Shown here one piece after another: positions 1 through 17,312 of a DNA stretch of 17,312 nt. The notes beneath the pieces were generated by a model. It searched no databases and was not told the DNA's origin. It saw only the letters and a program-made list of their open reading frames with translations. The translations under genes and the position numbers were made by a program. Origin of the DNA: a virus (taxonomy: Duplodnaviria; Heunggongvirae; Uroviricota; Caudoviricetes). The stretch spans positions 1-17,312 of IMG/VR virus record IMGVR_UViG_2563366888_000002, one strand, 5' to 3'. Numbering within the stretch: the first letter of the stretch is position 1; each line of letters opens with the position of its first letter.

Positions 1-93
1 GCAGAAAAAGCTTATTATGCTTCCATCGGAAACGATGATCTGGCAGCCTGAGTTCACAGATAAAACACTCTCCAGGAAACCCGGGGCGGTTCA
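1..93 (+). mobile_element. IS3-family insertion sequence, right-end fragment (last 16 codons of transposase OrfB plus terminal inverted repeat); IS629/IS1203-like
   Basis: Frame 1 of 1..51 translates [16 protein letters not shown]-stop, which I recognise as an IS3-family OrfB C-terminus. Bases 37..93 are the exact reverse complement of 17254..17312. The element ends ...CCCGGGGCGGTTCA at 93 (TG...CA-type terminus). Family assignment is from memory of IS ends, not a search. Confidence 0.7.
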
Positions 94-1223: not shown

Positions 1224-1238
1224 AAAGCGCCATGTGAA

Positions 1239-1347
<109 letters not shown>

Positions 1348-1363
1348 AAATAGTTAATTGCTC

Positions 1364-2647: not shown

Positions 2648-2693
2648 AGGTTGCTCCGGGCTATGAAATAGAAAAATGAATCCGTTGAAGCCT

Positions 2694-2785
2694 GCTTTTT
2701 TATACTAAGTTGGCATTATAAAAAAGCATTGCTTATCAATTTGTTGCAACGAACAGGTCACTATCAGTCAAAATAAAATCATTAT
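2694..2785. other. Prophage attL: lambda 15-bp core GCTTTTTTATACTAA (2694..2708) plus P' arm with arm-type Int sites
   Basis: Exact lambda core sequence. Downstream arm contains AGGTCACTAT / CAGTCAAAAT / AAATCATTAT repeats (lambda P'1-P'3 pattern). Bacterial ybhC sequence on the left, int on the right. Confidence 0.9.
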
Positions 2786-3852: not shown

Positions 3853-4048
3853 TTCTGATCCTCTTCAAAAGGCTACCTGTTACTGGTCGATTTAAGTCAA
3901 CCTTTACCGCTGATTCGTGGAACAGATATTCTCTTCCATCCTTAACCGGAGGAGGGAATATCCTGCATTCGCGCACCCATCGACGAATTGTTTCAAGGCT
4001 TCTTGGGCGTCGCTGGCGAGCGTTCCACTCCTGAAGTGTCAAGTACAT
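3830..4048 (-). CDS. xis: Excisionase Xis
   Basis: 72-aa ORF (MYLTLQEWNARQRRPRSLETIRRWVRE...) recognised as lambda Xis. Overlaps the int start as in lambda. GGAG 8 nt upstream of ATG. Confidence 0.95.
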   Translation of the reverse strand: MYLTLQEWNARQRRPRSLETIRRWVRECRIFPPPVKDGREYLFHESAVKVDLNRPVTGSLLKRIRNGKKAKS

Positions 4049-4071
4049 CGCAAAGTCTCCGCAATTACACG

Positions 4072-4096
4072 CAAGAAAAAACCGCCATCAGGCGGC
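4072..4096 (-). terminator. Putative intrinsic terminator-like hairpin (CCGCC-ATCA-GGCGG followed by a U7 tract on the minus-strand RNA)
   Basis: GC stem at 4082-4086/4091-4095 with A-run 4075-4081 on the plus strand (U-run on the leftward transcript). Located about 25 nt upstream of the xis start; function unverified. Confidence 0.35.
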
Positions 4097-4292
4097 TTGG
4101 TGTTCTTTCAGTTCTTCAATTCGAATATTGGTTACGTCTGCATGTGCTATCTGCGCCCACAGCATCCAGTGGTTATAGCAGTCGCTGATGTTCTCGGCTT
4201 CGATAACTCTGTTGAATGGTTCTCCATTCCATTCACCTGTAACTCGGAAGTGCATTTATCATCGCCATAAAACAAAACTCGCCGTAGCGAGT

Positions 4293-4324
4293 TCAGATAA
4301 AAGAAAACCCGCACTCGGCGGGTT
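4293..4324 (-). terminator. Putative intrinsic terminator on the leftward transcript
   Basis: 7-bp stem AACCCGC/GCGGGTT (4306-4312/4318-4324) with 5-nt loop, followed on the minus strand by UUCUUUUAU. Sits where I judge the sequence to diverge from lambda. Confidence 0.4.
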
Positions 4325-4603
4325 CGCATTCGTTCAAATTGCGTTTACTTCTTGGCGTTCTGTTCATCCATATCGATATACCATGGGTTGCTTCCCTTGG
4401 GCATGTTTAACGACTGCTCGCGATAGTATCTGATGCGCTCCATGAAATACTCGCGTGAGTGCTCAGGTTGCTCTCATGATACCTGCTCAGTGATAACAGG
4501 TATGTTAAGGCGCTCTCTGTACTCCATGCCTGATGCTGCAAGGTCAACGTTTACCTTGTTCTGTTTTTCTTTCGATTTCTCGGCGATGTTATGCCTGACA
4601 TTG

Positions 4604-4888
4604 TCAACCCGCCTCCTTCTGAACATAACGGTTATAAATCAGTCCCTGAGGGCCATAAGGAAGCGGGATGTGCAACTCCTCTGGTTCAGAAACTATCCAT
4701 TCCCCGGCCATCTCCGCTGGAGAGGTAATGATAAGTTGTTTGCTAATAAAAGGACCACTCCTCTCAACAACAAGCTTACCATCTTCATTAATAAAAGCTT
4801 GGATGTCAGGTGTGCTTCCACACTTGGTGATGCAGCGTTTGAACATTTTGTGTCCCCCCATTTTATGGACGGGGTAATTATAACACAT
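4604..4888 (-). CDS. Hypothetical protein (94 aa; possibly about 80 aa from an internal ATG preceded by a G-rich SD-like run)
   Basis: ORF from track; occupies the ea8.5 position but is not recognisably Ea8.5. No SD before the first ATG; GGGGGG 7 nt before the third Met codon. The antisense plus-strand ORF 4433..4891 looks low-complexity. Confidence 0.45.
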   Translation of the reverse strand: MCYNYPVHKMGGHKMFKRCITKCGSTPDIQAFINEDGKLVVERSGPFISKQLIITSPAEMAGEWIVSEPEELHIPLPYGPQGLIYNRYVQKEAG

Positions 4889-4972
4889 TGAAATATAGTA
4901 ATATTTGACGTAGATTTCTTTTGATCTATAAGCGATTTTTTAATGCTTTTAAGTTATAAATACTTGTTTTCA

Positions 4973-5548
4973 TCACCCATCTTGCTGCGGTGCTACTATT
5001 GAAAAGTACTCACACCCTTTAGCCCAAATAGTTTTGATAGTTGTCCAACTGACTGGAACCTTGATTTCGATTCTTCCGCTGCCGTCACAAGTTTCGCAAT
5101 CATCATCACCAAAGCATTCCGGGCAGCTTATAAACGTAGTTTCTGAAAATTCACCGGATAGCACACCCTTAGCGCCGTTCTCAGCGGTTAGTTTCTTCGG
5201 CACTATAACCCAACCATCCGGAGTTACCGGAGAATTGCCATTTATATCGAAGTTTGGCTCTGCGTCCTGAACCAGGAGGATGTAACCATTCTTGGCAGTA
5301 TCAAGTTCTAACGCCTCGGTGACGGTACCGAAATAGCGATTACCTAAATCCGCATCACAAGTGCTTACATCAATGGAAACCTCCATGCCTTCGATTAATT
5401 CTGGCAAGTTGTAAGTTTGGCTTACAGGTTCTGCTCCCAGTGATGCCAGTGCAATTCGTGCCAGTTCCATTTGTTCGCCACGAGTAAGCCCGTTTTCAAG
5501 CGGATTTTTAATGAACAATTCAATACGTTCTTTGGTAATAGTGGTCAT
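4973..5548 (-). CDS. Hypothetical protein with C-terminal zinc-ribbon (CPEC...CETCDGSG, DnaJ-like CxxCxGxG motif)
   Basis: 191-aa ORF. AAGGA 7 nt upstream of ATG. Only 10 nt downstream of the preceding gene's stop (operon-like packing). Cys-pair motifs read directly from the translation. Confidence 0.6.
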   Translation of the reverse strand: MTTITKERIELFIKNPLENGLTRGEQMELARIALASLGAEPVSQTYNLPELIEGMEVSIDVSTCDADLGNRYFGTVTEALELDTAKNGYILLVQDAEPNFDINGNSPVTPDGWVIVPKKLTAENGAKGVLSGEFSETTFISCPECFGDDDCETCDGSGRIEIKVPVSWTTIKTIWAKGCEYFSIVAPQQDG

Positions 5549-5558
5549 TTGTTAGTCC

Positions 5559-6314
5559 TTAAACTGCTAGTTGCAATTGCATTTCAAAGCGGTCGCGTTG
5601 TTCACAATACGCAAGAGAACCAGGGCTATTGTGTGCCTCAATCCGTTCTACCATTAATGCTGCGCGTGTCTCTTTACTTGCAGGTGCATAAGCCCCAGAC
5701 CAGGCTTTATCAATACCGATGTTTCGAGCGACGTTCGTACTATCTGCGCTGGCTAAGGGTAATTTTGTGAATATCAGCGGATTTAACATGCGCAATCCAT
5801 GTAGTTTCGTAACCAGCTGACCATGCCCATCAACAATGTGACGAATCAGGTCTTTCATTCTGGCTACCGCAAGAGTTGGGCGCTTTACGTCATAGTCGCC
5901 ACAACTACCGATAGCCACTCGCGGAAACTCATTGCACAAATGAATAAATCGCTCGTCACTTTCATTCATGTGCCACACTGGAACGCCAGCTAGTTTTCCG
6001 TGAGGCCACTCATTCAGAAGCGCATCATTTTCCTCCTCTCCGCCATCAATAACATCCGGGATAATGGCAAAATCGAATCTTGGGTGATTCTTCCAGCGAG
6101 CAACAAACTCGTAGTAATCGCTCCAGTCGATTTTGTTTTTGCCAGCTGCTTTCCAGGCGGTGAATGCACCGTTGTCCAGCGCGAACGACTGACAGTATTC
6201 AGCCGCGAGATTGATCTGGCCTGAATGCGCAAAACTGATAAACGCATGTCGCCCTTTCCATGCTCTCATTGCGCACGTATCAGGAGTAATAGGCCCACCG
6301 TGGTAGTGAATCAT
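5559..6314 (-). CDS. TGT-fold protein; candidate DpdA-like 7-deazaguanine DNA transglycosylase (251 aa from the SD-supported ATG)
   Basis: Start chosen at 6314: AAGGAG 6 nt upstream, and ATG overlaps the Ea22-like stop (TGAGATG). The track ORF extends to 6356 but overlaps the upstream gene. Motifs align to tRNA-guanine transglycosylase by eye: FALDNGAF ~ TDSGGFQ, IIPDVID ~ MIFDEC, ASADSTNVARNIG ~ FDCVMPTRNARNG. No C-terminal zinc-binding CxCxxC...H subdomain. Confidence 0.55.
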   Translation of the reverse strand: MIHYHGGPITPDTCAMRAWKGRHAFISFAHSGQINLAAEYCQSFALDNGAFTAWKAAGKNKIDWSDYYEFVARWKNHPRFDFAIIPDVIDGGEEENDALLNEWPHGKLAGVPVWHMNESDERFIHLCNEFPRVAIGSCGDYDVKRPTLAVARMKDLIRHIVDGHGQLVTKLHGLRMLNPLIFTKLPLASADSTNVARNIGIDKAWSGAYAPASKETRAALMVERIEAHNSPGSLAYCEQRDRFEMQLQLAV

Positions 6315-6315
6315 C

Positions 6316-6723
6316 TCACTCTCCTTTGATGCGAATGCCAGTAGCGCGGATTGCATCGATGACTTCAGAAACTTTGTATGCCATTACCGTTTGGTAATCA
6401 TCGTGAAAATCTGTTCGATGAAGCATGCTGCTACGTTCCGGGAGCAGTATTTCCCGCGCTTCCAGTTCTGCAATGCGCTTTTTTGCTGCTTCCAGTTCAT
6501 CCAGTAATTCCAGCACGGTAGCCGGATTAGCCTTGGCAACAAAATCCCGGACTGGCTTACAATCAATCTCCGCAATGGGTTGATACGATGTGTAGCCATG
6601 CTGTCTTGTATAACTACCGTGACGAATAACGAAAAAATCACCATTTATTTTTTTAGCCTGCCACTTATCTTCACCGGCTTTCTCTGCCGCTTCACGCAGT
6701 GCCTGAGAGTTAATTTCGCTCAC
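6316..6723 (-). CDS. Ea22/Ead-family protein (chimeric: lambda-like N-terminus and last residues, divergent middle)
   Basis: 135-aa ORF. N-terminus MSEINSQALREAAEKA... and C-terminal ...GIRIKGE are characteristic of the Ea22 family. Shorter than lambda Ea22 (about 182 aa). Confidence 0.7.
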   Translation of the reverse strand: MSEINSQALREAAEKAGEDKWQAKKINGDFFVIRHGSYTRQHGYTSYQPIAEIDCKPVRDFVAKANPATVLELLDELEAAKKRIAELEAREILLPERSSMLHRTDFHDDYQTVMAYKVSEVIDAIRATGIRIKGE

Positions 6724-6941
6724 GTCGAACCTCTCTGTTTACTGATAAGCTCCAGATCTTGCTGGCAACTGGCACAAGTCCGACAACCCTGAACGGCCAG
6801 TCGTCTTCGTTCATCTATCGGATCGCCACACTCACAACAATGAGTGGCAGATATAGCCTGGTGGTTCAGGCGGCGCATTTTTATTGCTGTGTTGCGCTGT
6901 AATTCTTCAATTTCTGATGCTGAATCAATTATGTCTGCCAT
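6720..6941 (-). CDS. TraR/DksA-family C4 zinc-finger protein (lambda orf73-like)
   Basis: 73-aa ORF with CCECGDPIDERRR...CRTCASC (two Cys pairs, DksA/TraR pattern). Overlaps the Ea22-like start by 4 nt. Confidence 0.8.
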   Translation of the reverse strand: MADIIDSASEIEELQRNTAIKMRRLNHQAISATHCCECGDPIDERRRLAVQGCRTCASCQQDLELISKQRGST

Positions 6942-7039
6942 CTTTCATTAATCCCTGAATTGTTGGTTAATACGCTTGAGGGTGAATGCGAATAATAAAA
7001 AAGGAGCCTGTAGCTCCCTGATGATTTTGCTTTTCATGT

Positions 7040-7321
7040 TCACCGTTCCTTAAAGACGCCGTTCAACATGCCGATCGCCAGGCTTAAATGAGTCGGTGTG
7101 AATCCCATCAGCGTTACCGTTTCGCGGTGCTTCTTTAGTACGCTACGGCAAATGTCATCGACGTTTTTATCCGGAAACTGCTGTCTGGCTTTTTTGATTT
7201 CAGAATTAGCCTGACGGGCAATGCTGCGAAGGGCGTTTTCTTGCTGAGGTGTCATTGAACAAGCCCCATGTCGGCAAGCATAAGCACACAGAATATGAAG
7301 CCCGCTGCCAGAAAAATGCAT
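7040..7321 (-). CDS. Small early-left hypothetical protein (likely translated from the internal ATG at 7255, giving 71 aa)
   Basis: ORF from track. The internal ATG at 7255 overlaps (ATGA) the stop of an upstream 27-codon hydrophobic mini-ORF (7252..7335), suggesting translational coupling. Lambda-like by memory. Confidence 0.5.
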   Translation of the reverse strand: MHFSGSGLHILCAYACRHGACSMTPQQENALRSIARQANSEIKKARQQFPDKNVDDICRSVLKKHRETVTLMGFTPTHLSLAIGMLNGVFKER

Positions 7322-7331
7322 TCAGTGGTTG

Positions 7332-7523
7332 TCATACCTGGTCTCTCTCATCTGCTTCTGCTTTCGCCACCATCATTTCCAGCTTTTGTGAAAGGGATGC
7401 GGCTAACGTATGAAATTCTTCGTCTGTTTCTACTGATATTGGCACAAACCTGACTCCAATTTGAGCGAGGCTATGTGCCATCTCGATACTCGTTCTTAAC
7501 TCAACGGGAGATGCTTTGTGCAT
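7332..7523 (-). CDS. Lambda orf63-like small protein
   Basis: 63-aa ORF. Overlaps the next upstream ORF by 28 nt, exactly as the lambda orf63/orf60a pair does. Confidence 0.55.
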   Translation of the reverse strand: MHKASPVELRTSIEMAHSLAQIGVRFVPISVETDEEFHTLAASLSQKLEMMVAKAEADERDQV

Positions 7524-7678
7524 ACAGCTCCCCGTTTATTATTTATCTCCTCAGCCAGCCGCTGTGCTTTCAGGGGATTTCTGATAACAGAAAGGCCGGG
7601 AAATACCCAGCCTCGCTTTGTAATGGAGTAGACGAAAGTGATCGCGCCCACCCGGATATTATCGTGAGGATGCGTCAT
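7496..7678 (-). CDS. Lambda orf60a-like small protein (60 aa from the ATG that overlaps the exo stop)
   Basis: Track ORF 7496..7684. The start at 7678 gives 60 aa and a 4-nt ATGA overlap with the exo stop, matching lambda organisation. Confidence 0.5.
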
Positions 7679-8355
7679 CGCCATTGCTCCCCAAATACAA
7701 AACCAATTTCAGCCAGTGCCTCGTCCATTTTTTCGATGAACTCCGGCACCATCTCGTCAAAACTCGCCATGTACTTTTCATCCCGCTCAACCACGACATA
7801 ATGCAGGCCTTCACGCTTCATACGCGGGTCATAGTTGGCAAAGTACCAGGCATCTTTTCGCGTCACCCACATGCTGTACTGCACCTGGGCCATGTAAGCC
7901 GACTTTATGGCCTCGAAACCACCGAGCCGGAACTTCATGAAATCCCGGGAGGTAAACGGGCATTTCAGCTCAAGGCCATTGCCGTCACTGCATAAACCAT
8001 CGGGAGAGCAGGCGGTACGCATACTTTCGTCGCGATAGATGATCGGGGATTCAGTAACATTCACGCCGGAAGTGAATTCAAACAGAGTTCTGGCGTCGTT
8101 CTCGTACTGTTTTCCCCATGCCAGCGCCTTAGCATTAACTTCCGGAGCCACACCGGTGCAAACCTCAGCCAGCAGGGTGTGGAAGTAGGACATTTTCATG
8201 TCAGGCCACTTTTTTCCGGAGCGGGGTTTTGCTATCACATTGTGAACTTCTGAAGCGGTGATGACGCCGAGCCGTAATTTGTGCCACGCATCATCCCCCT
8301 GTTCGACAGCTCTCACGTCGATTCCGGTACGCTGCAGGATAATGTCCGGTGTCAT
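7675..8355 (-). CDS. exo: Exonuclease (Red-alpha)
   Basis: 226-aa ORF recognised as lambda Exo ([54 protein letters not shown]...). Confidence 0.95.
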
Positions 8356-9137
8356 GCAGCCACCTTCTGCTCAGTGGCTTTCTGTTTCAGGAATCCAAGA
8401 GCTTTCACTGCTTCGGCCTGTGTCAGTTCTGACGATGCGCGAATGTCGCGGCGAAATATCTGGGAACAGAGCGGCAATAAGTCGTCATCCCATGTTTTAT
8501 CCAGGGCAATCAGCAGAGTGTTAATCTCCTGCATGGTTTCATCGTTAACCGGAGTGATGTCGCGTTCCGGCTGACGTTCTGCAGTGTATGCGGTATTTTC
8601 GACAATGCGCTCGGCTTCATCCTTGTCATAGATACCCGCAAATCCGAAGGCCAGACGGGCACACTGAATCATGGCTTTATGCCGTAACATCCGTTTGGGA
8701 TGCGACTGCCACGGCCCCGTAATTTCTCTGCCTTCGCGGGTTTTGAATGGTTCGCGGCGGCATTCATCCATCCACTCGGTAACGCAGATCGGATGATTAC
8801 GGTCCTTGCGGTAAATCCGGCATGTACAGGATTCATTGTCCTGCTCAAAGTCCATGCCATCAAACTGCTGGTTTTCATTGATGATGCGGGACCAGCCATC
8901 AACGCCCACCACCGGAACGATGCCATTCTGCTTATCAGGAAAGGTGTAAATTTCTTTCGTCCACGGATTAAGGCCGTACTGGTTGGCAACGATCAGTAAT
9001 GCGATGAACTGCGCATCGCTGGCATCACCTTTAAATGCCGTCTGGCGAAGAGTGGTGATCAGTTCCTGTGGGTCGACAGAATCCATGCCGACACGTTCAG
9101 CCAGCTTCCCAGCCAGCGTTGCGAGTGCTGTACTCAT
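8352..9137 (-). CDS. bet: Recombination protein Bet (Red-beta single-strand annealing protein)
   Basis: 261-aa ORF recognised as lambda Bet ([59 protein letters not shown]...). Confidence 0.95.
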
Positions 9138-9142
9138 CCGTT

Positions 9143-9439
9143 TTATACCTCTGAATCAATATCAACCTGGTGGTGAGCAATGGTTTCAACCATGTACCGG
9201 ATGTGTTCTGCCATGCGCTCCTGAAACTCAACATCGTCATCAAACGCACGGGTAATGGCTTTTTTGCTGGCCCCGTGGCGTTGCAAATGATCGATGCATA
9301 GCGATTCAAACAGGTGCTGGGGCAGGCCTTTTTCCATGTCGTCTGCCAGTTCTGCCTCTTTCTCTTCACGGGCGATCTGCTGGTAGTGACGCGCCCAGCT
9401 CTGAGCCTCAAGACGATCCTGAATGTAATAAGCGTTCAT
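9143..9439 (-). CDS. gam: Gam, RecBCD inhibitor (98-aa short form; the longer N-terminal extension is not in frame here)
   Basis: Translation [21 protein letters not shown]...[10 protein letters not shown] recognised as lambda GamS. In-frame stop at 9494-9496 upstream; the lambda-like extension peptide [15 protein letters not shown] is encoded in the +1 frame. Confidence 0.9.
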
Positions 9440-9514
9440 GGCTGAACTCCTGAAAATGGCTGTGAAAATATCGCCCGCGAAATGCCAGGCTGATTAGGAA
9501 AACAGGAAAGGGGA

Positions 9515-9721
9515 TTAGCGATTCAGGCCGTTACCGCGTCCGTCGAGAAAAACTTCCACGAGCAAATCACGGGTATAAGTGCGCTCGATGCCGCGATGCA
9601 GATAAAGCCGTCCGCGTAAATTAGCTGATGCAGTCCAGGTACCATCTTTGTGTTTGACCAGCATTCCTGGCATGACCGCACCTCGATTAACGGTCTGCGT
9701 TCCGTAATGTTGATGAACCAT
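9515..9721 (-). CDS. Small hypothetical protein in the kil position (68 aa from the SD-supported ATG); frame stays open upstream to a TTG at 9925
   Basis: AGGAG 5 nt before the ATG at 9721. The 136-codon track ORF starts on TTG with no SD. Non-lambda sequence. Confidence 0.45.
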
Positions 9722-9943
9722 AAAAACTCCTGCCCGTAAGCTGGGCTGCTGAACATATAGAGACTTCTGCGCGTATTCAGGCGGTGGATGGCCGCCGGTT
9801 GTCATAACTAAGTCGCCTCGTTGAAGCGACTGAGGTATGAAGTGTTGAGTTGATTTCAGCTGGTCACACCGACGTTCACGCGTCCGCTTCACCCCTCGCA
9901 CTCCCCGAAGCCTGCTGAAATTCAAACTGCGGATCTAAGCGGT

Positions 9944-10072
9944 CATCGCAACGGTGAAACAGGTGGTTACCGTATCGTTGTGTCGTTGCGATGAATTTAT
10001 TTAAAACTATAGTTGTTTTATCGTCAACAACAAAAGTTGTTTTGTCGGTTGTTTTAAATATAACTGGTTGTA
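9944..10072 (-). promoter_or_regulatory. Candidate OL/pL region and early leftward leader: 10-bp inverted repeat with 30-bp spacer plus GTTGTT/AACAAC operator-like half-sites
   Basis: CATCGCAACG (9944-9953) pairs with CGTTGCGATG (9984-9993). Half-sites AGTTGTTTT (10011-10019), CAACAAC (10025-10031), AGTTGTTTT (10035-10043), GGTTGTTTT (10048-10056), CTGGTTGTA (10064-10072). The same half-site recurs in the cI-cro intergenic region. No promoter hexamers confidently placed. Confidence 0.4.
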
Positions 10073-10161
10073 TTTAGGATGGATTTATTTTGTGACTTGC
10101 ATCGCATAGCGATAACTGAAGTGAGGTGTGGTGGTTTTTTGGACGGTATGAGTTATGAGGG

Positions 10162-10193
10162 GGAGGAAAAGAAAACCCGGCGCGGTTGCCGGG
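10162..10193 (-). terminator. Intrinsic terminator downstream of the lipoprotein gene (end of the cI-side operon)
   Basis: Stem CCCGGC/GCCGGG (10176-10181/10188-10193) with 6-nt loop, followed on the minus-strand RNA by UUUUCUUUUCC. 9 nt after the lipoprotein stop. Confidence 0.6.
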
Positions 10194-10201
10194 TATGATT
10201 A

Positions 10202-10582
10202 TCAGTCAGCCCAACCTGATTTCGAGTTTATTTGGGTTTCTGACATTGTGTATTTCTTAATCGTGTCATCGTTAAAAAGAATAGTAAGTTCTTTTTTCGT
10301 ACCGTTCGTTCCATTATGGAATAATCCATAGAATGGAATAAAAGTGGTGCCATTAACTTTTACTTTTGCAAAGGCGTACTTCCAGATCTCGTTTCCACTG
10401 TCAGTATATGAAACAGCATCAGGAGAACCAAAGTAAGATTTAACCTCATTCTTGGTTGTTTTACCTTCCTGAAGTTTAGACTGGACACTAATTTCAGTTT
10501 CATTTTTGAGTTGCTGGTTGCCTGAAGAAGCACACCCAGCCAATACAGATGCCATCATGGCAGCGATTAGGATTTTTCTCAT
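10202..10582 (-). CDS. BamE/SmpA-OmlA-like small lipoprotein; moron in the rex position downstream of cI
   Basis: 126-aa ORF. Signal peptide with lipobox LAGC. The EGKTTKNEVKSYFGSPD...WKY pattern resembles the BamE fold motif. Same strand as cI and followed by a terminator. Confidence 0.7.
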   Translation of the reverse strand: MRKILIAAMMASVLAGCASSGNQQLKNETEISVQSKLQEGKTTKNEVKSYFGSPDAVSYTDSGNEIWKYAFAKVKVNGTTFIPFYGLFHNGTNGTKKELTILFNDDTIKKYTMSETQINSKSGWAD

Positions 10583-10811
10583 TTTATGTTTCCATTCATT
10601 ATAATCAGAAACATCTTAACATAATGATTCGAAATAAAAACCGCTACGAGATAGGGGGACATTTTGCTGACAGTAGCAACAAATCTCAGCTAACAACGAG
10701 AATATTTACTGAAATATGCAAACAGATTTGGCGTTCTTATAGAGAATTTAGTGCAATATCTAATCCGAGTGGTATAAACCTTAACCTTCGCTCCCTTAAG
10801 TCGTAGATAAA

Positions 10812-11501
10812 TTAACCATGCTTCCTGTACGTCTGCGGCATGCTTCCAATGACCTTACCGAATATGAACACCCGGTTCATCTCGTCTTTCTCGATCGGGT
10901 CCCACGGCGAGTAGCTCTTGTTATCAGAGATAACCAGCAGCTTATCCTTCATCATTTGAAGACGTTTTACATGGGCAGTGTCGTCGTACAGAAACGCATA
11001 GATGCCATCACCGTCGAAAGATTTAACAGTGATATCAACGAACAGCAGGTCACCTGGTTCGATCGTCCCTGACATGCTGTCACCTCGCACGTTAATGATG
11101 CGGATATTTTCCGCCTTCCTGCCATCGAACATGTGACGAGCATCGTCAAACGAGTACTCAACCGAGCGTAGAACTTCTACAAACTCACGGTTGATTACAC
11201 CTGGCCCGGCACTGACTTCTATATCAAGAACGTCAATTTTGAAGTATTTGGAATGGCTGACAGTTGATTGTATTGGTTGCACTGTACTGTCTGACATATT
11301 TCCAACGCCAGAAGATAACCATTCTGCGCGCACACCCAAAGCGTTCGCGATCTCCACGATTTTAGTTGTTTGGTTAGCTTTCCCTGTTTCGATTTTCTGA
11401 ATAGCAGCCTGGCTAACCCCGACCAAATCCCCAAGCGCCTTTTGTGTAAGGCCTCGCGCTAATCTGGCTTCTTTAAGTCTTTCTGAGAGTGTTGTTTTCA
11501 T
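10812..11501 (-). CDS. cI: CI-type prophage repressor (N-terminal HTH_XRE, C-terminal S24 LexA-like peptidase domain)
   Basis: 229-aa ORF. HTH segment LTQKALGDLVGVSQAAIQKIETGK. Candidate Ala-Gly autocleavage site (VSAGPG). Ser/Lys dyad motifs GDSM and HVKRL. No SD before the ATG, consistent with a leaderless pRM-type transcript. Not lambda immunity. Confidence 0.85.
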   Translation of the reverse strand: MKTTLSERLKEARLARGLTQKALGDLVGVSQAAIQKIETGKANQTTKIVEIANALGVRAEWLSSGVGNMSDSTVQPIQSTVSHSKYFKIDVLDIEVSAGPGVINREFVEVLRSVEYSFDDARHMFDGRKAENIRIINVRGDSMSGTIEPGDLLFVDITVKSFDGDGIYAFLYDDTAHVKRLQMMKDKLLVISDNKSYSPWDPIEKDEMNRVFIFGKVIGSMPQTYRKHG

Positions 11502-11605
11502 AGATCAAATGTACAACCAAGGTTTTATTTCATCAAACGAAAATGGTTGTTGACTAAAAACAACCATAGTTTTAATCTTGATTCGGATTAACCACGGAGG
11601 TTGTT
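11502..11605. promoter_or_regulatory. Divergent promoter/operator region (OR; pR-like promoter for cro, leaderless pRM-like start for cI)
   Basis: Rightward TTGACT (11550-11555), 17-bp spacer, TAATCT (11573-11578), then GGAGG before the cro ATG. Inverted repeat ATGGTTGTT (11542-11550) / AACAACCAT (11559-11567) overlaps the -35. Confidence 0.6.
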
Positions 11606-11836
11606 ATGAACCCAGCAATCAAAACAGCGATCAATATCGTTGGTTCACAAAAGAAACTAGGCGATGCCTGCGAAGTTTCACAGCAGGCCGTCTATAAGTG
11701 GCTTCACAACAAAGCAAAGGTATCCCCTGAACATGTCGGCAGCATTGTTACGGCTACTGGTGGAGTTGTGAAGGCATACCAGATTCGCCCGGATCTTCCG
11801 AAGTTGTTTCCACACACCGAAAAGAACGCAGCTTAA
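11606..11836 (+). CDS. Cro-like HTH regulator (YdaS-like)
   Basis: 76-aa ORF divergent from cI with a strong SD. HTH-like segment KKLGDACEVSQQAVYKWLHN. Family call from memory. Confidence 0.7.
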   Translation: MNPAIKTAINIVGSQKKLGDACEVSQQAVYKWLHNKAKVSPEHVGSIVTATGGVVKAYQIRPDLPKLFPHTEKNAA

Positions 11837-11905
11837 ATTTCCATTTCACGCTCTTTAACAATAAGCAATCAACTTAACAGTCAATTCAAACTAAAGGAGT
11901 CAATT

Positions 11906-12445
11906 ATGCAACCACTTACATACCAACAGACTAGCGGATTTATTCCGACTGCGGTGATAAATCGTTCTCAAACAAAACAAGCTCCAGGCCACGAAAAAAT
12001 CCGTGATGCCGTCCGCGCCTGGTCGGCTGTAGATAATCAGGATGTCGTTGCCGCACTCATTGTGAATGAGTATCGGGAGCAGGGCGACGGCACCATCGAT
12101 TTCCCTGATGATGTCAGCCGTGCACGCCAGAAGCTGTTCCGCTTCCTCGATAACAAATTCGATTCTGAAAAATACCGAAATAACGTGCGTGAACTGACCC
12201 CGGCAATTCTGGCGGTACTACCGCTGGAATATCGCGGTTACCTGGTTGAGCAGGATAGCTTCATGACTCGGTTGGCTGAAATGGAAAAGGAACTCAGTGA
12301 GGCAAAACAGGCTGTCATTCTCAACGCACCACGCCACCAGAAACTGAAGGAAATGAGTGAAGGTATTGTGTCGATGTTTCGTGTGGACCCGGATCTGGCT
12401 GGTCCATTAATGGCGATGGTGACCACCATGCTGGGGGCAATATGA
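11906..12445 (+). CDS. CII-position regulatory protein (YdaT/CII-like), 179 aa
   Basis: AAGGAG SD. Located between cro-like and O with an ATGA overlap at the 3' end. Assignment is by position, not recognised sequence. Confidence 0.45.
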   Translation: MQPLTYQQTSGFIPTAVINRSQTKQAPGHEKIRDAVRAWSAVDNQDVVAALIVNEYREQGDGTIDFPDDVSRARQKLFRFLDNKFDSEKYRNNVRELTPAILAVLPLEYRGYLVEQDSFMTRLAEMEKELSEAKQAVILNAPRHQKLKEMSEGIVSMFRVDPDLAGPLMAMVTTMLGAI

Positions 12446-12531
12446 CAGGTTCAGAAATGGCGAAAGTCGGTCTGCGGGAACAGAACCGACTTTCAGGTGC
12501 AAATCGTAACACACTCATTGCGGGAGGAATT

Positions 12532-13461
12532 ATGGCAAACACTGCTGAGATATTCAATTTTCCAGTGCCGGATGCGGCACAAAAGGAGCCGCGCGTGGCA
12601 GATCTCGATGATGGTTATACGCGCATTGCAAATGAGTTGCTGGAAGCTGTGATGCTGGCCGGATTAACACAGCACCAGCTTCTGGTCTTCCTGGCTGTCA
12701 TGCGCAAAACATATGGCTTTAATAAAAAACTGGATTGGGTGAGCAACGAGCAACTTTCCGAGTTGACCGGGATATTGCCGCACAAGTGTTCTGCTGCAAA
12801 AAGCGTTCTGGTAAAGCGTGGGATTCTTATTCAGAGCGGGCGGAATATCGGCATTAATAATGTGGTCAGTGAATGGTCAACATTACCCGAATCAGGTAAG
12901 AAAAATAAAGTTTACCTGAAAGAGGTAAATTTACCTGAATCAGGTAAGAAAAGTTTACCCAAATCAGGTAAAGGCGTTTACCCGAATCAGGTAAACACAA
13001 AAGACAAACTAACAAAAGACAATATAAAACCTTTTTCGTCCGAGAATTCTGGCGAATCCTCTGACCAACCAGAAAACGATCTTCCTGTGGAGAAACCAGA
13101 TGCTGCAATTCAGAGCGGCAGCAGGTGGGGGACAGCAGAAGACCTGACCGCCGCAGAGTGGATGTTTGACATGGTGAAGACCATCGCGCCATCAGCCAGA
13201 AAACCGAATTTTGCAGGGTGGGCTAACGATATCCGCCTGATGCGTGAACGTGACGGACGTAACCACCGCGACATGTGCGTGCTGTTCCGCTGGGCATGCC
13301 AGGACAACTTCTGGTCCGGTAACGTGCTAAGTCCGGCCAAACTCCGCGACAAGTGGACCCAACTCGAAATCAACCGTAACAAGCAACAGGCTGGCGTGAC
13401 AGCCGGAAAATCAAAACTCGACCTGACAAACACTGACTGGATTTATGGGGTGGATTTATGA
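12532..13461 (+). CDS. O: Replication initiator O (non-lambda N-terminal iteron-binding domain, lambda-like C-terminal P-interaction domain)
   Basis: Conserved O motif ADLDDGY...LLEA...RKTYGFNK...SNEQLSELTG and lambda-like C-terminus (...WIYGVDL). Start set at 12532 (GGGAGG 5 nt upstream; aligns with the lambda O N-terminus). The track ORF begins at 12442. Confidence 0.85.
   Translation: MANTAEIFNFPVPDAAQKEPRVADLDDGYTRIANELLEAVMLAGLTQHQLLVFLAVMRKTYGFNKKLDWVSNEQLSELTGILPHKCSAAKSVLVKRGILIQSGRNIGINNVVSEWSTLPESGKKNKVYLKEVNLPESGKKSLPKSGKGVYPNQVNTKDKLTKDNIKPFSSENSGESSDQPENDLPVEKPDAAIQSGSRWGTAEDLTAAEWMFDMVKTIAPSARKPNFAGWANDIRLMRERDGRNHRDMCVLFRWACQDNFWSGNVLSPAKLRDKWTQLEINRNKQQAGVTAGKSKLDLTNTDWIYGVDL
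12883..12995. repeat. Replication origin iterons inside O (five about 18-bp direct repeats), followed by an A/T-rich segment to about 13040
   Basis: TTACCCGAATCAGGTAAG (12883), TTTACCTGAAAGAGGTAAA (12911), TTACCTGAATCAGGTAAG (12931), TTACCCAAATCAGGTAAA (12954), TTACCCGAATCAGGTAAA (12978), then ACAAAAGACAAACTAACAAAAGACAATATAAAA. Classic lambdoid ori architecture. Confidence 0.8.
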
Positions 13462-14159
13462 AAAACATCGCCGCACAGATGGTTAACTTTGACCGTGAGC
13501 AGATGCGCCGGATCGCCAACAACATGCCGGAACAGTACGACGAAAAGCCGCAGGTACAGCAGGTAGCGCGGATCATCAACGGTGTGTTCAGCCAGTTACT
13601 GGCAACTTTCCCGGCGAGCCTGGCTAACCGGGACCAGAACGAACTGAACGAAATCCGCCGCCAGTGGGTTCTGGCTTTCCGGGAAAACGGGATCACCACA
13701 ATGGAACAGGTTAACGCAGGAATGCGCGTAGCCCGTCGGCAGAATCGACCATTCCTGCCATCACCCGGGCAGTTTGTCGCCTGGTGCCGGGAAGAAGCAT
13801 CCGTTACCGCCGGACTGCCAAACGCCAGCGAGCTGGTTGATATGGTTTACGAGTATTGCCGGAAGCGTGGCCTGTATCCGGACGCAGAGTCTTATCCATG
13901 GAAATCAAACGCGCACTACTGGTTGGTTACCAACCTGTACCAGAACATGCGGGCCAATGCGCTGACTGACGCGGAATTACGGCGTAAAGCTGCCGATGAG
14001 CTGACCTGTATGACCGCGCGAATTAACCGTGGTGAGGCGATACCTGAACCAGTAAAACAACTTCCTGTCATGGGCGGTAGGCCTCTAAATCGTGCACAGG
14101 CTCTGGCGAAGATCGCAGAAATCAAAGCGAAGTTCGGACTGAAAGGAGCAACTGTATGA
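13458..14159 (+). CDS. P: Replication protein P (DnaB helicase loader)
   Basis: 233-aa ORF recognised as lambda P almost residue for residue (MKNIAAQMVNFDREQMRRIANNMPEQYDEKPQVQQVA...). Confidence 0.95.
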   Translation: MKNIAAQMVNFDREQMRRIANNMPEQYDEKPQVQQVARIINGVFSQLLATFPASLANRDQNELNEIRRQWVLAFRENGITTMEQVNAGMRVARRQNRPFLPSPGQFVAWCREEASVTAGLPNASELVDMVYEYCRKRGLYPDAESYPWKSNAHYWLVTNLYQNMRANALTDAELRRKAADELTCMTARINRGEAIPEPVKQLPVMGGRPLNRAQALAKIAEIKAKFGLKGATV

Positions 14160-14329
14160 CGGGCAAAGAGGCAATTATTCATTATCTGGAGACGCACAAG
14201 AGCTTCTGTGCGCCGGACGTTGCTGCGACAACAGGTGTGACATTAACCAGCATAAATCAGGCTGCGGCAAAAATGGCGCGGGCAGGAATCCTGGTCATTG
14301 ATGGTAAGGTCTGGCGAACGTTTGTTTAA
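14156..14329 (+). pseudogene. ren: ren N-terminal fragment (57 codons; lambda-like for about 50 residues, then divergent and terminated)
   Basis: ATG overlaps the P stop. Translation MTGKEAIIHYLETHKSFCAPDVAATTGVTLTSINQAAAKMARAGILVIDGKVWRTFV-stop matches lambda Ren (96 aa) only in its N-terminal part. Not in the ORF track because under 60 aa. Confidence 0.6.
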
Positions 14330-14475
14330 CGGTTAGCTACTCAGGATGATAGGGCGGGGCAAGTGAGTATGAAGCGGATTTTCAGGAATGCCATCAGAGT
14401 TTGGAAATAAAGTGGGTTTTCTAGTGGCAAGAGACTTGATAATATTTAGTTCTTTAAATCCAAGGAGATAGGGTT

Positions 14476-14970
14476 ATGAGAAAATTTATTATAGCCTTTG
14501 TCATAAGTGCCTCGTTTACTGCAAATGCTGGTGTAGAGAAGTTAGGGTCGTGGATAACAAAGTCTGAGATAAATAAAATGACTGACCAGACTGACTTTGT
14601 GGCTCTTAATTTATCACCAGATTCATATAACAAAGCAGGTACTGATCGTGCAACTTCACTGGTGTTGCGTTGTAGTGATAACAAAACAGATGCCTATTTA
14701 TCATTCAATGATTATATGGGTTCGGACAACCCAAGAATTACAGTGCGGTTAGATGGCGGAAAGCCGGTCAAGAGTGCTTGGGGAGGTGGGGAAGGCGGTG
14801 ATTCTGCATTTGCTCCACAACCAATACAATTTATAAAGACCTTGGCTAAGCATAAAAAAGCTATTTTTGGGTTTGAACCTTATGGATCAACTATGCAAGT
14901 AGTTGAGTTTGACTTGTCTGAGATTGATAAGGTTGTGGAAAAAATTTCACAGTCTTGCAATTGGAAATGA
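14476..14970 (+). CDS. Secreted hypothetical protein (signal peptide, two Cys), low-GC moron
   Basis: 164-aa ORF. N-terminal MRKFIIAFVISASFTANA signal-peptide pattern. GGAG-type SD. Visibly AT-rich relative to neighbours. Followed by a terminator. Confidence 0.65.
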   Translation: MRKFIIAFVISASFTANAGVEKLGSWITKSEINKMTDQTDFVALNLSPDSYNKAGTDRATSLVLRCSDNKTDAYLSFNDYMGSDNPRITVRLDGGKPVKSAWGGGEGGDSAFAPQPIQFIKTLAKHKKAIFGFEPYGSTMQVVEFDLSEIDKVVEKISQSCNWK

Positions 14971-14987
14971 CAAAAAAATTTCATATG

Positions 14988-15012
14988 AACCCAGTTGGCG
15001 CTGGGTTTTTTA
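14988..15012 (+). terminator. Intrinsic terminator after the secreted-protein gene
   Basis: Stem AACCCAG/CTGGGTT (14988-14994/15001-15007) with loop TTGGCG, followed by TTTTTAT. Confidence 0.65.
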
Positions 15013-15607
15013 TTTCAGTAGCCAATAATGCATTCAAAATCTCTTACTTGAGAAACGGCCTATTTGAGATTTCAGTCGTGGCAGGATGATCAGTTGATTC
15101 GAGTATTGACGCATTTGCGTTCGGAGCGATTACAGTAGATTGTAAATAATAATGAGAAACACATAGCCACATAGCCACCCCGTGGTATTGAAACCATATA
15201 ATGTTGGATTTGAAAACAGATCTTTTCCCATGTATTAATAACTACATCCCCGCGAGTGATTCAAAAAGGAGGGCCCAATTTTGTCCGAGTTTTTGTATTC
15301 CCCCGCATGCCGCTGCGGAGCACTACATCTGAGTGTCTGACTAGGGGATAAAATTAGACTGGATAGTGAGAAGAAAGTGGCGCGCTAGGCTGTGCCGAGT
15401 GCTACCAGTACACCTTGGGGGTGTGCAGCTTTCGCCGAGACTGTAGTGGGTATCGGTTAATGCACGAAAAACCGAGAGGTCAGACAACCAATTTGCCGTA
15501 GGATTGTTTCCGGTGCGATACCGGTCTACTAACTGAAAGCAATGCGAAAAAGCATAAACTCGGTCCTTCAGTCGCCCTACACACTATTTACTAAGAAGGG
15601 CTGAAGC

Positions 15608-15808
15608 ATGGATACAATTATTACATGGATGGGAGATCGTCTGTTGGGGGGGACACAAAAATCCGATCTGCAGCAGATGGCGATCACTGGATTAACTTCC
15701 GCGATTTGTTCAACAATTTTGTACACTGAAAAATTAAAACATGGTGAGCCTATTAACCCAAACGAAGAAGAAAAACTTTATAGGCTTTGGTATGAAGGAA
15801 ACGCTTGA
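15608..15808 (+). CDS. Hypothetical small protein (66 aa)
   Basis: ORF from track. AAGGG 9 nt upstream of ATG. No recognisable motif. Confidence 0.4.
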   Translation: MDTIITWMGDRLLGGTQKSDLQQMAITGLTSAICSTILYTEKLKHGEPINPNEEEKLYRLWYEGNA

Positions 15809-15916
15809 AAGAATAAAGCACAATTAAAACCTTTGATTTGCGATAATCAACTTGCCATAATTAAGTAATCGGAGCCTGAACAACTCCGGTGACTTCTGCG
15901 CTAAACGGGGACGTTT

Positions 15917-16018
15917 ATGCGCACATACAATCCAAACTATCTTCTCCTTTCACAGATGCAGAAATGCACCTGCAATTCTTTGCATCTAGCGTTTGACCTC
16001 TGTGGAGGTGAAGCGTGA
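15917..16018 (+). CDS. ylcH: YlcH-like small protein (33 aa)
   Basis: ATG at 15917; translation [33 protein letters not shown]-stop. Stop overlaps the GTG start of the ybcN-like gene, as in DLP12. Recognised from memory. Confidence 0.5.
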
Positions 16019-16470
16019 ACCTCCCACAAGATGGCATCAAATTGCATCGCGGTAACTTCACCGCTATCGGTCAGCAGATCCAGCCTTATCTGGAAGACGG
16101 CAAATGCTTTCGCATGGTGCTTAAACCGTGGCGAGAGAGACGCAGTCTTTCCCAGAATGCACTCAGCCACATGTGGTACAGCGAAATCAGTGAATACCTC
16201 ATCAGCAGGGGGAAATCGTTCGCTACCGCAGCATGGGTAAAAGATGCTCTCAAACACACATACCTCGGTTATGAAACCAAGGACCTGGTTGATGTCGTAA
16301 CCGGCGAAATCACTACTATCCAGTCGTTACGCCATACCTCCGATCTTGATACCGGAGAGATGTATGTCTTCCTGTGTAAGGTTGAAGCCTGGGCGATGAA
16401 TATTGGCTGCCACCTGACTATTCCGCAGAGCTGCGAGTTCCAGCTGCTGCGCGACAAGCAGGAGGCGTAA
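16015..16470 (+). CDS. ybcN: YbcN-like protein (NinB-family; DLP12 YbcN is described as a DNA base-flipping protein)
   Basis: 151-aa ORF with GTG start. Translation recognised as near-identical to K-12 DLP12 YbcN ([19 protein letters not shown]...). Contains the [12 protein letters not shown] motif. Confidence 0.85.
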
Positions 16471-16640
16471 TGGCTACACCGCTTATTCGTGTCATGAACG
16501 GACACATCTACAAAGTACCAAATCGTCGTAAGCGTAAACCTGAGCTGAAGCCATCCGAAATACCAACACTGCTCGGATATACCGCTAGCCTGGTTGATAA
16601 AAAATGGTTGCGACTGGCAGCAAGGAGGAATCATGGCTGA
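16470..16640 (+). CDS. ninE: NinE
   Basis: 56-aa ORF ([56 protein letters not shown]) recognised as NinE. Start overlaps the ybcN stop. Under 60 aa, so absent from the track. Confidence 0.8.
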   Translation: MATPLIRVMNGHIYKVPNRRKRKPELKPSEIPTLLGYTASLVDKKWLRLAARRNHG

Positions 16641-16923
16641 TTTGAGAAAAGCAGCGCGTGGTCGGGAATGCCAGGTAAGAATCCCTGGCGTATGTAATGG
16701 CAACCCTGAAACGTCTGTACTGGCACATATCCGGCTGACTGGATTGTGCGGCACCGGTACGAAACCGCCAGACCTGATTGCCACCATTGCATGTTCTGCC
16801 TGCCACGACGAAATCGACCGCCGCACGCATTTTGTTGACGCTGGATATGCAAAAGAATGCGCGCTGGAAGGTATGGCGAGAACGCAGGTTATCTGGCTGA
16901 AAGAGGGGGTAATTAAGGCGTGA
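16633..16923 (+). CDS. ybcO: YbcO-like DUF1364 protein (Cys-rich, putative nuclease)
   Basis: 96 aa from MADLRK...; recognised as YbcO-like. Overlaps ninE stop. Multiple Cys (CQVRIPGVC...CSACHDE). The track ORF starts at an upstream ATG (16594). Confidence 0.8.
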
Positions 16924-17253
16924 ATACTTACCACATCACACTACCCTGGCCGCCGAGCAATAACCGCTACTACCGCCATAATCGAGGGCGCACGCACATC
17001 AGCGCAGAAGGGCAGGCATACCGCGATAACGTCGCCCGAATCATTAAAGGCTCAATGCTGGATATCGGTCTGGCTATGCCTGTGAAAATCCGCATTGAGT
17101 GCCACATGCCGGATCGCCGTCGCCGTGACCTGGATAATCTACAAAAAGCCTCTTTTGACGCACTCACCAAAGCAGGTTTCTGGCTGGATGATGCTCAGGT
17201 CGTTGATTACCGCGTTGTGAAGATGCCTGTTACCAAAGGTGGGAGGCTGGAAC
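16920..17253 (+). pseudogene. rusA: rusA (Holliday-junction resolvase), 3'-truncated by IS insertion after about 111 codons
   Basis: GTG start preceded by GAGGGGG. Translation [26 protein letters not shown]...[14 protein letters not shown] matches RusA, then reads into the IS inverted repeat instead of the native C-terminus. Confidence 0.8.
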
Positions 17254-17312
17254 TGAACCGCCCCGGGTTTCCTGGAGAGTGTTTTATCTGTGAACTCAGG
17301 CTGCCAGATCAT
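17254..17312 (-). mobile_element. IS3-family insertion sequence end (same element type as at 1..93, opposite orientation, truncated by window edge)
   Basis: Starts TGAACCGCCCCGGG...; 17254..17312 is the exact reverse complement of 37..95. Interrupts rusA. Confidence 0.7.

Follow-up and report, generated by a model that had tools for sequence, protein, structure and literature searches.

The stretch analysed here, called the window throughout (17,312 nucleotides, positions 1 to 17,312 of the IMG/VR virus record IMGVR_UViG_2563366888_000002), is a lambda-like prophage of Escherichia coli whose integration site adjoins ybhC. Its genes follow the order int, xis, exo/bet/gam, repressor, cro-like gene, O, P, a ren pseudogene, a TagO/VasI-like cargo gene, a gap, an open reading frame (ORF) of 66 aa, ybcN/ninB and ninE. 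Several RefSeq chromosomes carry the gap at 100% identity, with no annotation under it. The gap is a composite of three parts, namely a gene remnant (15052-15138), a promoter-like region (15190-15245) and a structured RNA on the plus strand (15246-15576). We suggest, with a probability of about 60%, that the third part is the gene for a compactly folded non-coding RNA (ncRNA) of 331 nt, which would belong to an undescribed family and form an autonomous module of the early-right operon in lambdoid phages and prophages of Enterobacteriaceae. Comparison of the homologues establishes a sequence family with sharp ends, a multi-helix fold with a kissing pseudoknot, the strand of the folded molecule, the lack of a coding signature and the free reassortment of the flanks.

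The initial annotation, made from the letters of the sequence, had described the gap as lacking any ORF of 60 aa or more between a terminator and the 66-aa gene. Both borders were found, the left one by a terminator scan, and the longest frames within 14971-15607 on both strands indeed reach 43-49 aa; the ORFs of at least 40 aa are 14955-15089 (+, 44 aa), 15044-15178 (-, 44 aa), 15201-15332 (+, 43 aa), 15341-15487 (-, 48 aa) and 15577-15726 (-, 49 aa). The GC content of the gap had been called higher than that of its surroundings, and values of 0.465-0.54 were indeed measured over 15200-15599, the TagO-like gene having 0.345-0.445 and the 66-aa gene 0.36-0.405. The two hairpins cited as examples are present (CCGGTGCGATACCGG at 15510-15524 and ACGCATTTGCGT at 15109-15120), and so is a Shine-Dalgarno (SD)-like motif at 15266-15273 followed by a TTG frame of 19 codons and a stop. 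In agreement with the statement that tRNA-like elements and tandem repeats are missing, the tRNA/tmRNA scan was empty, and TRF reported a single trivial duplication (8 bp x 2.4) at 15160-15178, outside the RNA. This duplication (CACATAGC x 2.4) sits between the gene remnant and the promoter and is missing in the versions from strain AH62 and phage IdasGreatGrand. As for the interpretations offered, a structured ncRNA is strongly supported for 15246-15576, where the hairpin 15510-15524 turned out to be the covarying helix 14, and not elsewhere; the hairpin 15109-15120 lies inside the gene remnant and does not belong to the RNA. Decayed cargo genes had also been proposed. This was correct for 15052-15138 and incorrect as to an equivalent of ybcL/ybcM, since the fragment stems from the 3′ terminus of a Bro-N/P22AR (Roi-like) antirepressor gene; no pseudogene remnant was found in 15246-15576 on either strand.

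Homologues of 15246-15576 were found in 181 of 5426 complete E. coli genomes, mostly one per genome and mostly with 90-100% identity, and the element is unannotated there. They also occur in four sequenced phages, including Escherichia phages IdasGreatGrand and Turner (94% identity) and Klebsiella phage Kp4856-1 (78%); in these three, the genes on both sides of the block differ from those of the window. About 70 IMG/VR contigs were recovered with three conserved anchors, and further copies are present in the genomes of Enterobacter pasteurii and Escherichia sp. ESNIH1, in additional metagenome contigs and in Enterobacter and Klebsiella prophages. The genome and metagenome collections were scanned with exact patterns, by which distant homologues may be missed, and the plasmid collection searched contained no homologue. 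Altogether, 33 distinct full-length versions of 329-345 nt were gathered, 27-28 of which were aligned. The lowest identities to the window are 62% and 59%, observed in the related loci L085 and L104, respectively (loci are designated below by such numbers). The replication genes flank the element on one side and ninB on the other in every locus examined, and it is oriented like the early-right (PR) operon. Two copies are probably degenerate: in L074 (4025-4355) the kissing helix and helix P4 have mismatches and no terminator follows, and in L065 (3066-3395) the 3′ tail has been replaced.

A covariance model of the family (R1) matched the window on the plus strand over all 331 positions with 370 bits (E about 1e-112). 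The window is among the 27 training sequences of the model, and therefore this score fixes the boundaries and the strand and provides no independent evidence. There was neither a minus-strand match nor a second copy of R1 in the window, and a search of the collected loci revealed no more-distant relatives. The initial annotation had recommended an Rfam/Infernal scan. None of the 4227 covariance models of Rfam 15 reached its gathering score anywhere in the window, a permissive search (E<=10) of 14900-16050 gave only chance matches (E 0.8-8), none of them over 15246-15576, and in four divergent relatives, searched at E<=1, the element itself drew no match. The same search detects STnc100, isrJ and tRNAs elsewhere in the related loci; therefore, the scan does find known prophage RNAs. 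These RNAs, STnc100 (88 bits), isrJ (52 bits) and two tRNA genes, are located near the Q/late region (L003 7979-8174, L083 4281-4357 and L104 7778-7930). A full-text literature search with exact sequence strings and by topic yielded no description of the RNA; the paper on Pas sRNAs concerns other RNAs.

The secondary structure was derived from the alignment. RNAalifold proposed 73 pairs for 21 sequences, of which 22 showed compensatory changes. The curated model contains 84 pairs in 14 helices and was tested on the 27-sequence alignment, with partners shifted by 1-3 columns as controls. Standard pairs filled 94.2% of the cells in the model compared with 32-42% in the shifted versions, two-sided changes were seen in 32 pairs compared with 4-12, and the covariation score was 0.279 compared with 0.04-0.08; none of 500 shuffles reached the observed values. 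The best-supported helices are P4, the stem of the three-way domain and the kissing helix, and the best-supported hairpins are the two of the three-way domain, the one with the GUAGUG loop and the variable peripheral one (Table 1). In the three-way domain, column pair 135:191 is G-C in 14 sequences and A-U in 13, 143:161 is C-G in 13 and A-U in 12, and 144:160 is C-G in 12, G-C in 10 and G-U in 5. In helix 14, pair 275:291 is A-U in 14, C-G in 6 and U-A in 5, and 269:297 is C-G in 12 and G-C in 8. Covariation across the family thus shows that 15246-15576 has a conserved multi-helix fold with a loop-loop kissing pseudoknot and invariant junctions.

The kissing helix was found by an exhaustive scan of column pairs, and 98.8% of its cells are paired. 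It exists in several versions, CACUAC/GUAGUG in E. coli, CGCAAC/GUUGCG in Klebsiella, CACCAC/GUGGUG in L009 and CAUCAC/GUGAUG in L076 and L083. It is possible that the two loops pair within one molecule or between molecules. For the closing helix P1, a single compensatory change (G-C to C-G, in L085) was observed; the helix is otherwise mostly invariant, and its support is therefore moderate. A local hairpin (15542-15545/15552-15555) competes with P2 for the same segment, and both P1 and P2, being nearly invariant, are weakly tested by covariation. The 5′ end AUCCCC pairs equally well with GGAGGG (15268-15273) or GGGGAU (15344-15349). In the proposed pairing between the 3′ tail and the GACUGG junction, the third pair is U-G in most sequences, C-G in E. 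coli and, independently, U-A in L040 and L085, and it is never C-A. These changes are consistent with pairing and one-step only, which gives it moderate support. If the tail is paired in this way, it would explain why the module ends exactly there.

Table 1. Features of the window around the structured RNA (SD, Shine-Dalgarno; positions are those of the window)
Feature	Coordinates	Strand	Details
TagO/VasI-like cargo gene	14476-14970		Pfam VasI match; TagO in RefSeq annotation
Intrinsic terminator of the TagO/VasI-like gene	14987-15008	+	left edge of the gap, outside the RNA module
Antirepressor pseudogene fragment	15052-15138	+	last 28 codons and stop; reads ETAYLRFQSWQDDQLIRVLTHLRSERLQ, then stop TAG 15136-15138
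Predicted promoter region	15190-15245	+	-35 TTGAAA 15210-15215; TG 15231-15232; -10 ATTAAT 15234-15239; predicted +1 A15246
Structured ncRNA core, 331 nt	15246-15576	+	covariance model R1, covariation, G-U bias, no codon periodicity
SD-like motif and TTG micro-ORF	15266-15340	+	AAGGAGGG 15266-15273, micro-ORF 15281-15340; peptide MSEFLYSPACRCGALHLSV, then stop; inside the RNA
P1, long-range closing helix	15283-15292 with 15556-15565	+	helix 2; RNAalifold; 97% of cells paired
P2	15304-15310 (CGCAUGC) with 15539-15546	+	helix 3; 97% paired, changes solely G-C to G-U
Hairpin with 8-nt loop	15312-15334	+	helices 4 and 5; loop bears CACUAC (15321-15326), kissing partner
P4	15335-15342 (GUCUGACU) with 15478-15485	+	helix 6; 99.5% paired, three pairs compensatory
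Junction GACUGG	15357-15362	+	proposed long-range pseudoknot with 3′ tail UCAGUC 15568-15573 (helix scan, motif table)
Three-way domain	15373-15433	+	helices 8-12; stem 15373-15378/15428-15433, hairpins 15379-15406 and 15408-15426
Hairpin with loop GUAGUG (15443-15448)	15434-15457	+	helices 5 and 13; pairs with CACUAC 15321-15326, 6-bp loop-loop kissing pseudoknot
Variable peripheral hairpin CCGGU-GCGAU-ACCGG	15504-15529	+	helix 14; about 10 nt longer in L085 and L104 (most divergent)
Conserved 3′ tail UCAGUCGCC	15568-15576	+	3′ boundary of the module; flanks recombine there
Linker of 31 nt and 66-aa ORF	15577-15808	+	SD AAGAAGGG 15594-15601, ORF 15608-15808; replaces the terminator of most relatives
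ybcN/ninB	16015-16470

The strand follows from the kind of mismatch tolerated. In the proposed pairs, 228 cells contain G-U or U-G and only 11 contain A-C or C-A, and therefore the folded molecule is the plus-strand transcript. The variable columns are distributed over the codon phases as 55/50/64 (p = 0.41), i.e., with no codon periodicity, and the relatives differ by indels of 1 and 2 nt. Protein coding on either strand was rejected, as the window's own ORFs are shorter than 50 aa and periodicity is lacking. On the minus strand, stop-free runs of up to 109 codons exist in some relatives, but they are out of register across the indels and show no periodicity. It should be noted that in some relatives (e.g., L009, L054 and L053) a minus-strand frame is stop-free across the whole 330 nt, which could mislead gene callers.

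Upstream of the RNA, the promoter region contains a block shared with the relatives (ACCATATAATGTTGGA). With 26 upstream contexts anchored at the A of AUCCCC, the first conserved RNA base, all of them presented TTGAAA or TTGTAT, 17-18 nt, a T/A-rich hexamer, exactly 6 nt and then the RNA start. The hexamer is ATTAAT in the window and TTTAAT, TTAAAT or TTATAT in relatives, and TG often precedes it. This geometry is consistent with a sigma-70 promoter whose +1 position would be the first conserved base. In many relatives, an inverted repeat (AACCATA-N5-TATGGTT) was observed after an A-tract, just upstream of the -35 hexamer and overlapping it (L039 at about 690-715, L104 at about 4362-4385, and L012), and window 15190-15209 is the stretch homologous to this region. 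The repeat could be an operator for some regulator or an UP-like element. L005 (E. coli M15) has acquired an IS3-family element (2245-3500) at the position corresponding to about window 15205-15207, a few bases 5′ of the -35 hexamer, with both hexamers and the RNA intact. Another IS3 copy, in strain VR50, deleted the prophage left of ren.

Downstream, 17 of 21 distinct contexts carry a G+C-rich hairpin with 6-8 T, beginning 8-15 nt past the conserved tail CAGUCGCC. The scan tool calls this terminator in L083 and does not flag it in L003, though the hairpin and the T-run are plain in the L003 sequence. In the window, the same kind of scan over 15009-15900 found no terminator-like site. The E. 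coli lineage of the window and the L025/L039 lineage lack the terminator, and in both a 118-aa gene, shortened to 66 aa in the window, has its SD and ATG within 31-33 nt of the RNA. The 66-aa ORF thus encodes this 118-aa phage protein in a form truncated at the C-terminus. The short form belongs to phrog_8527 and the 118-aa form to phrog_12412, with function unassigned. The two forms part ways after ...LYRLWYE, and some E. coli copies have an additional N-terminal change (60 aa).

The genes following the RNA come from at least seven unrelated families, namely the 118/66-aa protein, a 183-aa protein, a 178-aa membrane protein, a DUF1367 protein and proteins of 95, 177 and 69 aa. Those preceding it are likewise from many unrelated families and include antirepressor-like and DUF550-like genes (the latter recognised by eye), a putative methyltransferase gene and others. 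Searches of the flanking families against Pfam and PADLOC gave no match suggesting a function, and in PHROG only families of unknown function were hit. The RNA and its neighbours recombine independently: L025 and L037 have RNAs that are 97% identical and different downstream cassettes, and L037 and L076 have RNAs that are just 76% identical and the same terminator-plus-gene cassette. Given this free reassortment with both flanks, together with the IS3 insertion that left the module intact, the RNA and its promoter, usually with the terminator, behave as an independent mosaic module. A functional coupling to the downstream gene found no support, given this reassortment and the database results just mentioned.

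Based on these comparisons, the 3′ end of the RNA is the left border of a hot spot of cargo genes, and the slot after it looks like a cargo or defence hot spot. In the Klebsiella/Enterobacter phages L003 (4385-4936) and L083 (about 653-1183), the gene after the RNA terminator encodes a protein of 176-183 aa with a conserved RLRHNLLH motif (R-x4-H, HEPN-like), which belongs to phrog_27260 (function unassigned) and has no Pfam or PADLOC match. In other lineages the same slot is filled by the 178-aa membrane protein.

The left part of the gap has a different origin. Alignment to relatives lacking the TagO cassette begins at about 15050. By blastn, window 15050-15128 aligns to the 3′ ends of genes annotated with a P22AR C-terminal domain in about 370 E. 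coli genomes, and the fragment 15052-15138 has 64% identity (E=1e-12) to the last 28 residues of the intact protein of strain AH62; the intact gene is located at L004 3266-3589. In-frame stops precede the fragment and the remainder of the gene is gone, and therefore 15052-15138 is a remnant and not a gene. As judged from these alignments, it is the leftover of a Bro-N/P22AR (Roi-like) antirepressor gene, the rest of which was replaced by the TagO cassette with its own terminator. The TagO/VasI-like cargo is type VI secretion-associated, and in the identical genomes the ren gene before it is annotated as a frameshifted pseudogene. Further left in these genomes, a gene for a BamE-like lipoprotein lies by the repressor in the immunity region (window 10202-10582, minus strand), and a YdaT-domain gene (11906-12445, plus strand) occupies the position of lambda cII.

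Several observations weigh against an autonomous ncRNA gene. A strict consensus promoter scan did not call the site, the -10 hexamer lacks A at position 2 in many relatives (e.g., TTTAAT), and the promoter as well as both ends of the RNA are predictions from sequence. P1, P2 and the pairing of the 5′ end are nearly invariant and hence escape a covariation test. Folding of the single sequence is unremarkable (z = -1.1), and the energy of the consensus fold exceeds the minimum free energy by about 17 kcal/mol, pseudoknots not being counted; the case for the structure therefore rests on comparative evidence. The SD-like motif, the TTG codon and the first 10 codons of the micro-ORF are conserved, which makes translation possible. 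No terminator follows the RNA in the window's E. coli lineage and in the L025/L039 lineage, and in many relatives 25-70 nt separate the terminator from the start of the next gene, for which no separate promoter is visible. A cis-acting leader would account for these last two facts equally well.

Such a leader is the main rival of a trans-acting RNA. Resembling a riboswitch or an attenuator, or working by processive antitermination, it would respond to a ligand, a protein or the ribosome and regulate how far transcription passes the terminator into the cargo and nin genes. The order promoter, 331-nt RNA, terminator and gene indeed resembles that of a riboswitch with its expression platform, and the invariant nucleotides of the junctions would be suitable for a ligand pocket. 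In the window and in L025/L039, the RNA physically makes up the 5′ untranslated region of the 66/118-aa gene. The element sits at what we take to be the place of the tR2 terminator in lambda. The initial annotation had listed a leader for the downstream gene among its options, and by position this is right in the window's lineage (no terminator, 31 nt to the ATG). It fails as a general rule, given the strong terminator after the RNA in most relatives and the at least seven unrelated downstream families, which have no common function; riboswitches normally go with one functional class. Furthermore, the arms of the terminator vary (CCGCC.., CCACC..) without a compensating change in near-identical RNAs (L009 and L012), the helix scan found no covarying alternative pairing between RNA and terminator, and the RNA is fully conserved in lineages that lack the terminator. 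Pairing of the tail GUCGCC with GGCGGU is conceivable, but it is broken in GUCGAC variants without compensation, and the conserved tail has a better partner inside the RNA. We therefore regard a cis-acting leader as rather unlikely.

A dual-function or coding transcript appears quite improbable. Here, the SD and TTG would drive the synthesis of a micropeptide (M-S/T-E/Q-F-L-Y/N/D-S-P-A-C...) or of a leader peptide remodelling P1. In favour of translation, GGAGG precedes the TTG by 5-8 nt, also in L085 and L104, the most divergent relatives, and the first 10 codons, the only ones conserved among relatives, show three apparently synonymous changes (CAG/CAA, TAT/TAC and GAC/GAT). However, the frame ends after 11 codons (L085, L104), 12 (L008, L017), 16 (L074 and L076, frameshifted and with a degenerate SD) or 19, codon periodicity is lacking and the same nucleotides build P1 and P2. 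The four-fold degenerate sites of codons 7-9 (TCC CCC GCA) are invariant across sequences just 59% identical, and the variable codons 14-15 coincide with the kissing loop and change together with its partner 120 nt away; the constraint thus acts on the RNA. Being not hydrophobic and variable in length (11-19 codons), the peptide does not resemble a type I toxin of the hok/ibs/ldr kind, and the micro-ORF is probably not a functional product. It is hardly credible that the whole gap is decayed cargo sequence with no function, kept by recent common descent. This holds for the antirepressor remnant and would agree with the mostly 90-100% identity of the E. coli copies, but for 15246-15576 it is already contradicted by the covariation (32 compensatory pairs) and the mosaic flanks. 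Down to 59% identity, the core keeps a constant length in phages of Escherichia, Klebsiella and Enterobacter, its boundaries are sharp while both flanks were repeatedly replaced, and neither strand has a frame, a remnant or periodicity. A site acting at the DNA level (in recombination, replication or protein binding) is just as implausible. The element does adjoin the replication module and its ends coincide with mosaic recombination junctions, yet tolerance of G-U and not of A-C is a property of a single RNA strand and not of duplex DNA, and promoter- and terminator-like signals bracket the element precisely.

Among known systems, the RNA is in kind closest to the orphan 'ornate' phage-associated RNAs, and it would be a new family within a known kind. 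ROOL and GOLLD are large ornate prophage-associated RNAs of unknown function (Rfam; cryo-electron microscopy, PMC12286853). Like them, the RNA described here is borne by phages and prophages, has no fixed neighbour gene and comprises several hundred nt with many helices (at least 13, including the kissing pseudoknot), conserved junctions and long-range loop-loop contacts. It differs in giving no match to their covariance models, in the window and in four relatives, and in being smaller, 331 nt. ROOL is about 580 nt long and GOLLD about 800 nt. They come from Firmicutes and from rumen or lake samples, whereas this RNA has a fixed place in the early operon of lambdoid phages of Enterobacteriaceae. 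The prophage small RNAs (DicF, IpeX, AgvB/AsxR, Pas sRNAs, STnc100 and IsrK/IsrJ) are comparable as RNA morons with their own transcription, predicted in our case, and an intrinsic terminator, present in most relatives. However, they are 50-250 nt long and consist of simple hairpins plus a single-stranded seed, unlike the 331 nt with nested multi-way junctions and pseudoknots found here. Nor was conserved complementarity to the rest of the phage detected: within the window there are only chance matches of 10-11 nt, the best of which (11 nt, inside ybcN/ninB) is at chance level and absent in relatives, and antisense targets in the prophage were rejected on these grounds.

Riboswitch and attenuator leaders share with the element the order of promoter, structured RNA, terminator and ORF as well as the invariant junction nucleotides, and they differ from it in the points discussed above (unrelated downstream genes, no alternative antiterminator pairing found, persistence without the terminator). 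Type III toxin-antitoxin systems of the ToxI type also combine an RNA gene, a terminator and a small protein gene in a mobile element, and one downstream family (183 aa, L003 4385-4936) has the R-x4-H motif reminiscent of HEPN RNases. Their antitoxin RNA, in contrast, is marked by tandem direct repeats of about 34-36 nt upstream of the toxin gene, whereas this RNA is a single complex fold in which TRF found no tandem repeats; in addition, one downstream gene can stand in for another here, and PADLOC models gave no match to any of them. Retrons are set apart by their reverse transcriptase, as no adjacent ORF or annotation of this kind was found in the window or related loci, and type I toxin mRNAs by a conserved hydrophobic ORF, which is missing here. 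The put RNAs of HK022 likewise are structured RNAs in a lambdoid early operon upstream of terminators. They are cis-acting antiterminators, two-hairpin elements of about 70 nt directly downstream of PL and PR, and by this description they are distinct from an RNA of 331 nt with its own predicted promoter in front of ninB.

Based on the above, we suggest the following scheme for the ncRNA gene. Transcription would start at A15246 from a sigma-70-type promoter (TTGAAA at 15210, ATTAAT at 15234). In most relatives it would stop at the intrinsic terminator 8-15 nt past the tail, giving a separate RNA of about 350-360 nt. As its synthesis would not depend on PR, this RNA would probably also be present in lysogens. 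In the window's E. coli lineage, where the terminator has been replaced, the RNA would make up the 5′ portion of the mRNA for the truncated 66-aa ORF. As a tentative proposal, on which the balance falls slightly to the negative side, the RNA may be a trans-acting molecule that relies on its tertiary structure and serves as an accessory 'moron' in conflicts between phage and host or between phages. The invariant junction nucleotides are predicted to form a binding surface or a pocket for a protein or small ligand, and the action would not go through coding or simple antisense pairing. It is unlikely, though conceivable, that the RNA is the functional core (a ribozyme, a self-assembling RNA-only particle or a sensor) of a modular conflict system with an interchangeable downstream effector. 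The effectors would then be the HEPN-like protein, the membrane protein and others, with a logic like that of retrons or type III toxin-antitoxin systems and without a known protein partner.

Lambda-like phages of E. coli have been studied intensively, yet this RNA gene is unannotated in every record examined. RNAs so rich in conserved helices, invariant junctions and tertiary pairings typically fulfil a specific biochemical role, such as catalysis, binding of a ligand or protein, or self-assembly. Most orphan structured RNAs are mainly metagenomic, whereas this one occurs in cultivable phages of E. coli and Klebsiella and in genetically tractable hosts, and it is therefore far easier to study. 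Its position at the border of a hot spot of cargo exchange matters for research on the defence and exclusion functions encoded by prophages.

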